DNA of 64,000 nt from a virus, in IMG/VR virus record IMGVR_UViG_3300042197_004429, positions 113,313 through 177,312 of that record; one strand, given 5' to 3'. The position numbers and the translations under genes were made by a program. Numbering within the stretch: the first letter of the stretch is position 1; every line of letters begins with the position of its first letter. A model generated the notes under the pieces. The model searched no databases. It saw only the letters and a program-made list of their open reading frames with translations, and was not told where the DNA came from. Positions 38,614 through 42,643 of the stretch are shown here, in pieces.

Positions 38614-39228
38614 ATGCAGGATTACTGGACTGATCTTGAATCAAGAGCGGCAATAAATTTGATTTGTGCTTTGGACGCAGAGATAGTAGCCAAACAACAA
38701 ACTATTTTGCTGTGCTGCGATAAAGATTTTCCAGAAATTTTTAGGCAAAAAATTTGGGATTCAATAAACAATCTGTCTCTTGAAACAGGGTCAGGTCGCA
38801 TACAAGATAATGTCGATTTTTACAAACAATCAAAAAGAAGTTTGTTGCTTGGTTCTCTTAAAAACATTTGGCAAGAAATTGAAAGCAAAAACTATCCAAC
38901 ACGCTTTGGTATGCTCCTAGGTGATCCTGCAAGCAATCTTGCTGCTAGAGATTCGTATAACAAAGAAATGGAAGAATTTGACATTAAACAAAGTGGCGAA
39001 ACCAAATAAACAATACCAACTAGTAGCAGACAGTTTATGATTTTCTTGTTTTTATTTTTCTTGGTGATTGTTGCATTTGCAAATCAGATTGCTCAATACT
39101 ATCGGTACAATCTATTTCTTTATAAAAAAGAAATAGAGCAACGAGAATACGCAGAGTTTCAACTACAGATGCAGCGTGAACGTGCTATTCAACAATTGAA
39201 CAGAATTAGAAAATACTACGAAAATTGA
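38614..39228 (+). other. Two hypothetical genes: 38614-39009 and 39037-39228
   Basis: Abutting ORFs separated by motif copy 39012. Confidence 0.55.
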
Positions 39229-39872
39229 CCATGATCAAAGTTATCAAACCACTACTGTGTACTAAACAGCATTATTTTGTTGCTGTTAGCATGGGCGTTG
39301 ATAGTGTTGCTGCTTTGTTTTGGTTAAGATCTAAAGGATATTCTATTACTCCTTTGCATTTTAATCATAATTTACGTGCTCAAAATGGAACAATGCACGA
39401 ACGATTTCTGAGTCTTTGCAAAGACTTGAATCTTAAGTGTGAAAGCGATATTGGCGTTGCACTCAAAACCGAAAATGATTGCCGACAAGCAAGATTAAAT
39501 TTTTATTCAAGAGTTGCTAAGGGTGGAACAGTCATCACAGCCCACCATTTGAATGATTGGGTTGAAAGTTATCTGCTTAATTGTTTGCGTGGTCATCCTC
39601 GTCATAGCCCAATTAAATTTAAAAGTAAGTTTGAAGAATTTGATGTTGTTCATCCTTTTCTTTTAACTAGAAAAAAAGACTTTGAGCAATATCTTGTTCG
39701 AAATAAATGGGATCACTATGTTGTAAAAGATGAATCGAATTTAGTTTCAAAAGGAAGCAGAAGAAACTGGATTAGAAACACTATTCTTCCACAAATGCAA
39801 TCCCAAAAATTATCACTCGAAAAATTTGCCAGAAAAAAGATTCAAACAATGCTGGTAAAGATCGAACATTGA
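39225..39872 (+). CDS. tilS: tRNA(Ile2) lysidine synthetase, minimal catalytic-domain form
   Basis: VAVSMGVDS (PP-loop), HFNHNLR, RQAR..FY, TAHHLND..ESYLLN.LRG, DESN and RNWIRN.ILP. Confidence 0.85.
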   Translation: MTMIKVIKPLLCTKQHYFVAVSMGVDSVAALFWLRSKGYSITPLHFNHNLRAQNGTMHERFLSLCKDLNLKCESDIGVALKTENDCRQARLNFYSRVAKGGTVITAHHLNDWVESYLLNCLRGHPRHSPIKFKSKFEEFDVVHPFLLTRKKDFEQYLVRNKWDHYVVKDESNLVSKGSRRNWIRNTILPQMQSQKLSLEKFARKKIQTMLVKIEH

Positions 39873-39918: not shown

Positions 39919-40569
39919 GCTCTCAGTGTTCGATTCCTTTTTTGAAAGAAATTAAGATGGACGAAAAAATGGTTGGCAAGGTTTGCTTTTACCTTGGCTT
40001 TGTTTCGATTGCAGCAAGCATTGCAATCTGGTTTTTGAGCAAAGATCCCGACGCTGCTCATGGCGAACGATTTGGTATTTTTGTTGGGCTTTGGGCTCCT
40101 ACATTTTTTGCCTTGGCAAATAGATGGAAGTGAGATAGAATAAGTTTGATAAAATCAATTCACAACACCTTTTTTAGTTTAAATTAGAAAGTACAAAATG
40201 ATGAGTCGATATTTTTTTATTGTTGGAGCGTTCCTAAGTTTTCTTCTTAGTGTGGGAATTTGGTTCCTTTCCGGAAACGAAAGCCAAGCAATTTTTGTAG
40301 GAATATGGGTGCCAAGTATTCTTTGTTTGGGAAGGTATTTCGACAATGCCTAACCCTGTGTTATTTGTTTGTGGCTTGATCGTAACTCTTGTAAGCGGAA
40401 TGGGAGTTTTGATTTACATAACAAGTCTAGGATACAAAGAAAAAAAGAAATATCCGGTTGAACCGGACATTGATTTGGGGGCACACGATATTGATGCTAA
40501 AAAATTGAAATCATCCCTAGACAGTTTCATTGAAATACCATCAGTATCCTAAGAAGAAGTGAGAAAATT

Positions 40570-40833
40570 CCGAAGGTAGCAAAACGGTTAATGCAACAGA
40601 CTCATTTGAAAAAGTGCCATACGAGTGGAAACTTCGTATGGGATGGCATCAAATTCGGTGAAACCTAAATGCGAAAGCACATGGCAATGCCGAGCGAAGC
40701 CCGCAAGGGAACGTGTAGAGACTTGACGGTGCCCACCTAAGTTGAAAAATAAGGTGAAGGCAAAGTCCAAGGAGTGATGAAAATCACACAAACTTGAATC
40801 TGTAGACTGTGGGTTCGAATCCCACCCTTCGGA
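40570..40833 (+). tRNA. tRNA with CAU anticodon (probably Ile2), interrupted by a group I intron; exons 40570-40605 and 40797-40833
   Basis: Acceptor CCGAAGG/CCTTCGG with discriminator A. Spliced anticodon arm ACAGA-CTCATAA-TCTGT. T-arm GTGGG-TTCGAAT-CCCAC. The C1-G72 pair argues against an initiator tRNA. No CCA is encoded. Confidence 0.85.
40606..40796 (+). ncRNA. Group I intron (IC3, Azoarcus tRNA-Ile-like), 191 nt, no ORF
   Basis: Inserted after U36 and ends in G. P1 is CAU|UU-GAAA-AAGUG. Conserved core AAATTCGGTGAAACC, AATGCCGAGCGAAG, TGTAGAGACTTGACGG and AAGGCAAAGTCC. P9 is GTGAT-GAAA-ATCAC. Confidence 0.9.
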
Positions 40834-42576: not shown

Positions 42577-42643
42577 GTTATAGGTGTTGGCGATAAACAA
42601 CAATCGTGTTATACTAACTAGGTGGCACAAAGGACTGCCCACC

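Follow-up and report, generated by a model that had tools for sequence, protein, structure and literature searches.

A predicted Azoarcus-type group I intron splits a tRNA(CAU) gene accompanied by a one-domain TilS gene in a T4-like phage

A tRNA(CAU) gene interrupted in the anticodon loop

The stretch of DNA analysed here, hereafter the window, comprises 64,000 nt (positions 113,313 to 177,312) of IMG/VR virus record IMGVR_UViG_3300042197_004429, a contig of 177,312 bp with 34% GC. The window encodes rIIA, an ATP-dependent DNA ligase, a helicase and a clamp-loader protein, and its source is, as predicted from sequence, a large T4-like phage. Positions 40570-40833 (+) hold a complete tRNA(CAU) gene in two pieces, interrupted between U36 and A37 by an insert with the features of a group I intron; a gene for a short homologue of tRNA(Ile)-lysidine synthetase (mini-TilS) lies upstream. 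The gene is composed as follows.

40570-40605 (+): tRNA exon 1 (tRNA positions 1-36), with acceptor strand CCGAAGG, D arm, anticodon-stem strand ACAGA, C32 U33 and anticodon C34 A35 U36
40606-40796 (+): group I intron, subgroup IC3, Azoarcus or "Ile2.5Ug" class, without an open reading frame (ORF), as assigned by RF00028, nhmmer and covariation
40797-40833 (+): tRNA exon 2 (positions 37-73), with A37 A38, UCUGU, variable loop, T arm GUGGG-UUCGAAU-CCCAC, CCUUCGG and discriminator A

Both exons were delimited using ARAGORN with introns allowed, alignment (for exon 1 with the relatives L020 and L012; L numbers are our locus labels) and intron-less orthologues, and exon 2 also by reading the sequence. 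The intron is exactly 191 nt long, its 5' end reads UUGAAAAAGUG and its last base is G. Exon 1 ends in CUCAU, and joining the exons restores a 7-nt anticodon loop, CUCAUAA, in a product that by sequence is a 73-nt tRNA; CCA is not encoded in exon 2. The intron-less orthologues, which were taken from the mini-TilS neighbourhood search described below, all carry the loop CUCAUAA and the same CCGA.../...UCGGA acceptor.

Without its intron option, ARAGORN reported no tRNA at this position and two other tRNAs in the window. With introns allowed it found the gene and the 191-nt intron, set the junction 3 nt too far 5' and labelled the gene tRNA-Gln(UUG), because TTG is present at both intron ends. 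We rejected tRNA-Gln(UUG): the intron would then end in C, and the GUG guide, the terminal guanosine of the intron (omega-G) and the intron-less orthologues all favour CAU. Only under the CAU reading is the 5' splice site preceded by a U and the last intron base a G, and the same rule re-assigns several "Gln", "Leu" and "Pro" calls made by ARAGORN among the relatives to CAU tRNAs split at the same site. An initiator tRNA was also rejected, since the anticodon stem lacks three consecutive G-C pairs and position 1-72 is paired. A minus-strand ORF at 40588-40791 (67 aa), lying within the intron, was dismissed as spurious, since the substitutions found there are RNA-type compensatory pairs.

The insert as a group I intron of the Azoarcus class

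The Rfam search that the sequence-only reading of this locus had proposed returned RF00028 (Intron_gpI) at 40594-40789 with 56.1 bits against a gathering score of 50 (E 1.2e-13, full model length, positions 1-253). This match, obtained with relaxed speed filters on a 501-nt sub-region, is the sole one across the entire 177-kb record; a scan of the whole window at the gathering threshold with default filters reported no intron. The intron scores 172 bits with nhmmer and shares 74-79% nucleotide identity with betaproteobacterial tRNA(CAU)/tRNA-Ile2 introns (Rhodocyclaceae and Oxalobacteraceae copies). The proposal that it is of Azoarcus type, inserted at the same site and carried by a phage is thus borne out by this identity, by the insertion after U36 of CAU and by the phage genes around it. 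The structural elements are the following.

40603-40616 (+): P1, in which exon CAU and intron UU pair with AAGUG, closed by a GAAA loop
40617-40641 (+): P2 hairpin, with GAAA tetraloop at 40628-40631
40645-40650 (+): P3 5' strand GGCAUC, pairing with 40728-40733 (GGUGCC); part of the P3/P7 pseudoknot
40654-40694 (+): P4-P5 domain, with P4 formed by 40654-40659 and 40689-40694 and P5 by 40664-40684
40695-40713 (+): P6/P6a, 19 nt, with a GCAA cap
40720-40724 (+): P7 5' strand GACUU, pairing with 40763-40767 (AAGUC); guanosine-binding site
40734-40756 (+): P8 hairpin, with an 11-nt-receptor-like CCUAAG...UAAGG motif and a GAAA cap
40770-40796 (+): P9.0 (40770-40771 with 40793-40794), P9 (40774-40787) and omega-G (40796)

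To assess conservation of this fold, two core motifs were used as search patterns, which yielded 67 IMG/VR loci and more than 120 bacterial loci. Sixteen viral pre-tRNAs were aligned against a hand-drawn P1-P9 structure of 48 pairs, with P7 treated as a pseudoknot. Across the 16 relatives, 95.6% of cells are paired, compared with 26-39% when partners are slid, and changes on both sides of the pair (i.e., compensatory changes) occur in 26 of the 48 pairs; not one of 500 shuffles reached any of the observed covariation measures. Pairing is complete in P3, P7, the basal P8 helix, P9.0 and P9, and reaches 97.9% in P4 and 94-100% in P5. Compensatory changes were found in four of the six P3 pairs, in P9.0 and P9, and in six of the eight P2 pairs tested, while the P6 base pair 127-143 covaries. 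Four P7 pairs are invariant and the fifth alternates between A-U and U-A. The minimum free energy fold recovers P2, P4-P5, P6a, P8 and P9 (z-score -3.5). All elements listed by the sequence-only reading, namely the split between U36 and A37 with its 191-nt insert, P1 with its GAAA loop, P2, P3 (GGCATC/GGTGCC), P4-P6, P7, P8, P9 and the terminal G, were recovered at their positions.

Exon 1 ends at U36 (40605), just before the 5' splice site, and this base makes a U-G wobble with G 40614. The wobble is invariant in 16 of the 16 aligned sequences, and the guide sequence (GUG here) shifts with the anticodon in GUU and UCU relatives. The 3' splice site is marked by omega-G, the last intron base being G in all clean relatives. 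P5 carries a receptor-like CCUAAA...CAUGG motif and a GAAA cap, and the P9 loop is GAAA (40779-40782). By analogy with the Azoarcus contact TL2-TR8, the P2 loop would dock on the P8 receptor; the tetraloop-receptor contacts of the Azoarcus intron are named in 10.1101/037895.

Compared with 42 other CAU-type introns, the window intron departs from 105 near-invariant columns at only six positions, which form three pairs (in P3, P8 and P9.0) that have changed from G-C to A-U in a compensatory manner. Such compensated departures give a picture of purifying selection acting on structure in an AT-rich genome. On family membership and structural conservation, the 191-nt insert is a genuine group I intron of subgroup IC3 and of the Azoarcus class, as far as sequence comparison can establish it.

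Compactness and integrity of the intron

The Azoarcus intron is often called among the smallest group I introns; the literature searched for an outright "smallest group I intron" claim contained none. The lengths of the window intron's elements were set against those of two bacterial copies, one from Rhodocyclaceae (204 nt) and one from Massilia (205 nt). Only P6/P6a (19 versus 31 nt) and P5 (21 versus 23 nt) are shorter than in both bacterial copies, and the other elements are equal in length, P8 for instance measuring 23 nt here and in the bacterial relatives. The overall saving is 13-14 nt (12 nt in P6a and 2 nt at the tip of P5), so the truncation of P6a is the main source of compactness.

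The sampled bacterial CAU introns measure 201-249 nt and every shorter copy is viral. Among the clean short viral copies, once their junctions are corrected, the shortest is that of L048 (189 nt), followed by L032 (190 nt) and by the 191-nt introns of the window, L020 and L028. The description "very compact" given by the sequence-only reading thus holds insofar as the intron is shorter than the 205-nt Azoarcus intron (PMC13168695), but the saving is modest and, with copies of 189 and 190 nt at hand, the intron is among the shortest without being uniquely short. Viral CAU introns are shorter than bacterial ones (Mann-Whitney p 0.005), which is only a hint given a pattern-selected sample with non-independent members. 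A still shorter viral relative of 188 nt, L043:193-456, has A as its last base in place of omega-G and lies at the end of a long branch; a check of the ARAGORN labels calls it doubtful, and it may be an inactive or atypical copy.

The truncated P6a, the AT enrichment of the window intron and the existence of a short viral relative ending in A could suggest a decayed relic that no longer self-splices, in a gene that is either a pseudogene or dependent on host or phage proteins for splicing. We consider this very unlikely, for the conserved core is unbroken at every position and each of the six deviations is compensated, while omega-G, the U-G wobble, P7 and J8/7 are all preserved, as are both tetraloop-receptor motifs. 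The pre-tRNA is moreover conserved far above the flanking genes: it is 90% identical to those of L020 and L028, whereas the neighbouring TilS gene shows about 66% nucleotide and 60% amino acid identity in these phages. In L012, whose intron is the closest relative of the one in the window, the P1 loop carries a 31-nt insertion (L012:5640-5672) that extends the intron to 222 nt instead of 191, the rest being about 89% identical.

A one-domain TilS gene and the identity of the tRNA

The following features lie upstream of the split tRNA gene.

39013-39022 (+): copy of the motif ATACCAACTA, upstream of the stretch holding a small ORF, mini-TilS and the tRNA
39225-39872 (+): mini-TilS, 215 aa, a one-domain homologue of tRNA(Ile)-lysidine synthetase with the N-terminal PP-loop catalytic domain only

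The mini-TilS gene, which the sequence-only reading did not mention, marks the tRNA as a probable tRNA-Ile2 within a conserved phage cassette for AUA decoding. Its product matches PF01171 with 87.9 bits (cut-off 27) and all of its Protein Data Bank sequence matches are TilS (1ni5, 1wy5, 3a2k). An AlphaFold2 model of the protein reaches a mean confidence (pLDDT) of 91, and its six best fold matches are all TilS, with TM-scores of about 0.8. The protein aligns to residues ~8-230 of the solved enzymes, which are 317-464 aa long. Its family comprises at least 344 clusters, with proteins of about 213 aa; homologues in deposited phages are only about 30% identical, notably those of the PA5oct/MIJ3 group.

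To examine the association of this gene with tRNAs, we collected 20 IMG/VR mini-TilS loci; one of them ends just past the gene, and with the window 20 loci could be evaluated. A tRNA(CAU) gene lies just downstream of mini-TilS in 16 of these, usually within tens of bases (about 44 nt in L020 and L028). In L012, the TilS gene is about 11.5 kb away from the tRNA. AUA accounts for 35% of the isoleucine codons of the phage, at 25 per 1000 codons, and tRNA-bearing T4-like phages all carry a lysidine-type tRNA-Ile(CAU) (PMC1524935). Because of the TilS linkage, the intron-less orthologues, the use of AUA and the T4-like precedent, the tRNA is most likely a tRNA-Ile2 that reads AUA.

Alternatively, the spliced product would be an elongator tRNA-Met(CAU) and the neighbouring PP-loop protein would act on something else. 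ARAGORN does label CAU tRNAs as Met, and the TilS match is 0.9 bits below the equivalog cut-off with a non-canonical PP-loop. The acceptor stem of the split tRNA, which contains A4-U69 and A5-U68, also appears unlike that of E. coli tRNA-Ile2. Yet the recurrence of a tRNA(CAU) after mini-TilS across the phage loci, the placement of the closest bacterial introns in class Ile2.5Ug, the heavy use of AUA and the habit of T4-like phages of carrying tRNA-Ile(CAU) all point away from methionine, and we regard this alternative as unlikely.

Taken together, a phage tRNA(CAU) split by an IC3 intron would be spliced to a tRNA-Ile2 that is modified by way of mini-TilS, the intron being a passenger, and we hold this combined reading to be highly probable. 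Several observations weigh against it. The tRNA itself is odd: its first acceptor pair is C1-G72, its D stem has 3 bp and contains an A13/A22 mismatch, and CCA is not encoded. An exact-pattern search over the joined exons found no intron-less copy with near-identical exons in IMG/VR. No P10 pairing was identified for the intron; as in other tRNA introns, it is probably the anticodon stem that positions the 3' exon. As to mini-TilS, its match to TIGR02432 (lysidine_TilS_N), which covers positions 2-189 of 189, scores 92.7 bits, 0.9 bits under the NCBIfam equivalog cut-off of 93.6. The protein lacks the C-terminal tRNA-binding domains of type I and II TilS, and its PP-loop reads SMGVDS instead of the canonical SGGxDS; since SMGxDS is invariant in 25 family members, it is a conserved variant and not a sign of decay. 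Lastly, mini-TilS and the tRNA do not adjoin in this phage but are separated by about 700 nt. Three small ORFs (63, 51 and 68 aa) occupy 39942-40552 (+) between them, and this stretch looks like a local insertion because a homologue of its 40194-40450 portion sits elsewhere in L020.

From the evidence above we infer that the intron splices, that the tRNA is modified with lysidine and that its identity is isoleucine. Before splicing, CAU of the anticodon would pair with the intron guide GUG to form P1 with its U36-G wobble, and a free guanosine bound in P7 would attack after U36. The terminal G (40796) would next occupy the guanosine site, and exon ligation would release the 73-nt tRNA. The P3/P7 pseudoknot would hold this fold together, as would, by analogy with Azoarcus, a pair of GAAA tetraloop-receptor interactions (L2-P8 and L9-P5). 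Once the tRNA is spliced and its CCA added, C34 would become lysidine, probably through the one-domain TilS encoded upstream, and the resulting tRNA could read AUA, a codon heavily used in this AT-rich phage. The intron would be tolerated because it splices cleanly. Outside the window, a CCA-adding-enzyme domain (PF01743, 110.6 bits) was detected at G000:C1:68348-68761 (-) in a 741-aa open frame, a point of interest for a split tRNA gene that does not itself encode CCA.

Passenger or regulator of the cassette

Intron content varies among the 16 mini-TilS-linked tRNA(CAU) genes. Eleven are uninterrupted; in three, those of the window, L020 and L028, the 191-nt intron follows U36; and the remaining two, L199:4127-4409 and L210:3171-3456, have another group I intron, about 210 nt long, between U33 and C34. 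We interpret this U33|C34 intron as a second, independent invasion of phage tRNA(CAU).

The position of the U36 intron raises the possibility that it gates the cassette: C34 would be locked in P1 until splicing, which would time or tune lysidine formation, charging and AUA decoding in response to, e.g., GTP or Mg2+. Pairing of C34 in P1 would presumably block TilS on the precursor, and the intron has been kept in three diverged phages. The distribution just described, in which most modules lack any intron and two bear an unrelated one elsewhere, is instead the pattern of sporadic invasion, and we find a gating role improbable. Given the 11 intron-less loci and the two with a different intron after U33, the intron is most likely a sporadic, mobile or inherited passenger of a conserved AUA-decoding cassette and not its regulator.

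Genomic context

The split tRNA lies 40 kb inside the 64-kb window of same-strand phage genes, between the genes for the DNA ligase and rIIA, and is one of seven tRNAs in the phage record. Prophages commonly attach at tRNA genes, host flanks are present in some IMG/VR contigs, and the closest non-viral introns come from Burkholderiales; one could thus suppose that the split tRNA is bacterial DNA, brought in as a host flank or by chimeric assembly. This is scarcely credible in view of its position deep within phage genes on a contig of 34% GC, of exons that are common only to three other large viral contigs, and of its synteny with the phage mini-TilS.

Deposited phages gave no match in a megablast search with 22 kb, and tblastn with the helicase retrieved only distant matches in Thermus, Rhodothermus and Bacillus phages; for these reasons we name no close cultured relative and assign no host. 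The motif ATACCAACTA occurs 40 times in the window (at most one mismatch) against 3.7 copies expected, nearly always on the + strand, and may be a phage promoter-like signal. As one copy lies just upstream, the small ORF, mini-TilS and the tRNA may be transcribed as a single unit; going downstream, the motif next occurs at 42611. Sigma-70 promoter-like sites showed no enrichment around the split tRNA gene.

Comparison with known systems

The window intron and the bacterial introns of Azoarcus type share the insertion after U36 of CAU, the GUG guide, a P1-P9 architecture without P5abc and without an ORF, and GAAA loops on P2 and P9 with receptor motifs in P8 and P5. They differ in carrier and length, the known introns being bacterial and 204-205 nt long whereas the window intron resides on a T4-like phage and measures 191 nt, with a P6a of 19 instead of 31 nt, a P5 tip shorter by 2 nt and three core G-C pairs replaced by A-U. 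Its receptors are slightly non-canonical (CCUAAA/CAUGG in P5, UAAGG in P8), and its tRNA is divergent from bacterial intron-bearing tRNAs and lacks an encoded CCA. Ile2.5Ug is one of the four classical bacterial tRNA-intron types, together with Leu.3Ug, Arg.5Ug and fMet.2Ug; Williams (2020) raised the number of intron classes to 21, from bacterial and archaeal genomes only.

The introns of T4 td, nrdB and sunY and of phage Twort (PMC3984707) likewise belong to the self-splicing group I class in phage genomes. Known phage group I introns, however, interrupt protein-coding genes, are mostly of subgroup IA2 and often encode a homing endonuclease, whereas the window intron belongs to IC3, lacks an ORF and interrupts the anticodon loop of a tRNA. 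In their 2014 review of bacterial group I introns, Hausner, Hafez and Edgell (PMC3984707) stated that the phage introns then known were all in protein-coding genes, despite the many phage tRNA genes, which this locus and its dozens of relatives in IMG/VR show to be no longer the case. The tRNA introns of Lak megaphages (10.1101/356790) share with this one the interruption of the anticodon region and the failure of bacterial tRNA finders to detect them. In the consulted portion of that report, Devoto et al. describe tRNA introns as previously unreported in phages, call the inserts "enigmatic" and test them against Rfam, and that portion states no class; the window intron, for its part, is a clear group I ribozyme by sequence. 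Our full-text literature search turned up no account of a group I intron in a phage tRNA gene, which is not proof of absence. What is new here is a known ribozyme class, slightly trimmed, in a phage tRNA gene, a type of carrier undescribed in the searchable literature.

Phage TilS was first reported in the PA5oct/MIJ3 group of Pseudomonas jumbo phages (Imam et al. 2019, PMC6892783). Those proteins are likewise phage-encoded, short (203 aa) and limited to the catalytic domain; they are about 30% identical to the window protein, and PA5oct has no annotated tRNA within 2.5 kb on either side of the gene. The mini-TilS family of the window, in contrast, has a tightly linked tRNA(CAU) and an invariant SMGxDS.

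This locus leaves the understanding of group I intron mechanism unchanged. Its added value lies in the link to a mini-TilS cassette and in the evidence for repeated, independent intron invasion of phage tRNA(CAU). Default tRNA finders and filtered Rfam scans miss such split tRNAs, with the consequence that phage tRNA repertoires are under-counted, here by an AUA reader. A natural Azoarcus-type ribozyme with a shorter P6a also offers a ready test of how much of this model ribozyme is dispensable, and the sequence-only reading suggested it as a possible biotechnology tool.

Phylogeny and other viral tRNA introns

In a maximum-likelihood tree of 65 distinct introns, the window intron groups with those of L012 and L020 in an all-viral clade (support 100/99), which nests in a CAU group of poor resolution made up mainly of Burkholderiales and Rhodocyclales. 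At least three switches between viral and bacterial labels are required by well-supported branches, and exchange of introns between phages and bacteria, in one direction or the other, therefore appears likely. The suggestion of the sequence-only reading that phages act as a vector for tRNA introns is compatible with such an intermixed tree, which does not establish the direction of transfer. ORF-less tRNA introns are patchily distributed over bacterial phyla, and phages are a concrete candidate route for their spread. More broadly, phage tRNA genes could be an overlooked habitat, and possibly a shuttle, for IC3 introns, with tRNA-Ile2 invaded independently at two sites and phage copies tending to be trimmed below the ~205 nt usual for bacterial members, which would make them the smallest natural Azoarcus-type ribozymes; we judge the case for and against this wider picture to be evenly balanced.

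IC3-type introns were also seen in other viral tRNA genes (L002-L068), namely Leu(UAA), Arg(UCU), Lys(CUU), Ser(UGA) and Asn(GUU), the last at two sites. Two loci labelled Asp by ARAGORN, L017 and L026, are tRNA-Asn(GUU) genes split between U35 and U36 by introns of 200 and 193 nt, respectively. A second, weaker match to the intron model is present in each of L011, L026, L058 and L068, and the intron matches of L010, L047 and L061 are split by several hundred bases, possibly by ORF insertions. Finally, an identical 214-nt tRNA-Arg(UCU) intron was found in L173, a 204,271-bp contig of a Bacteroidales metagenome-assembled genome, and in L027, a 204,214-bp IMG/VR contig; the two are probably one jumbo phage that was binned into the bacterial genome.

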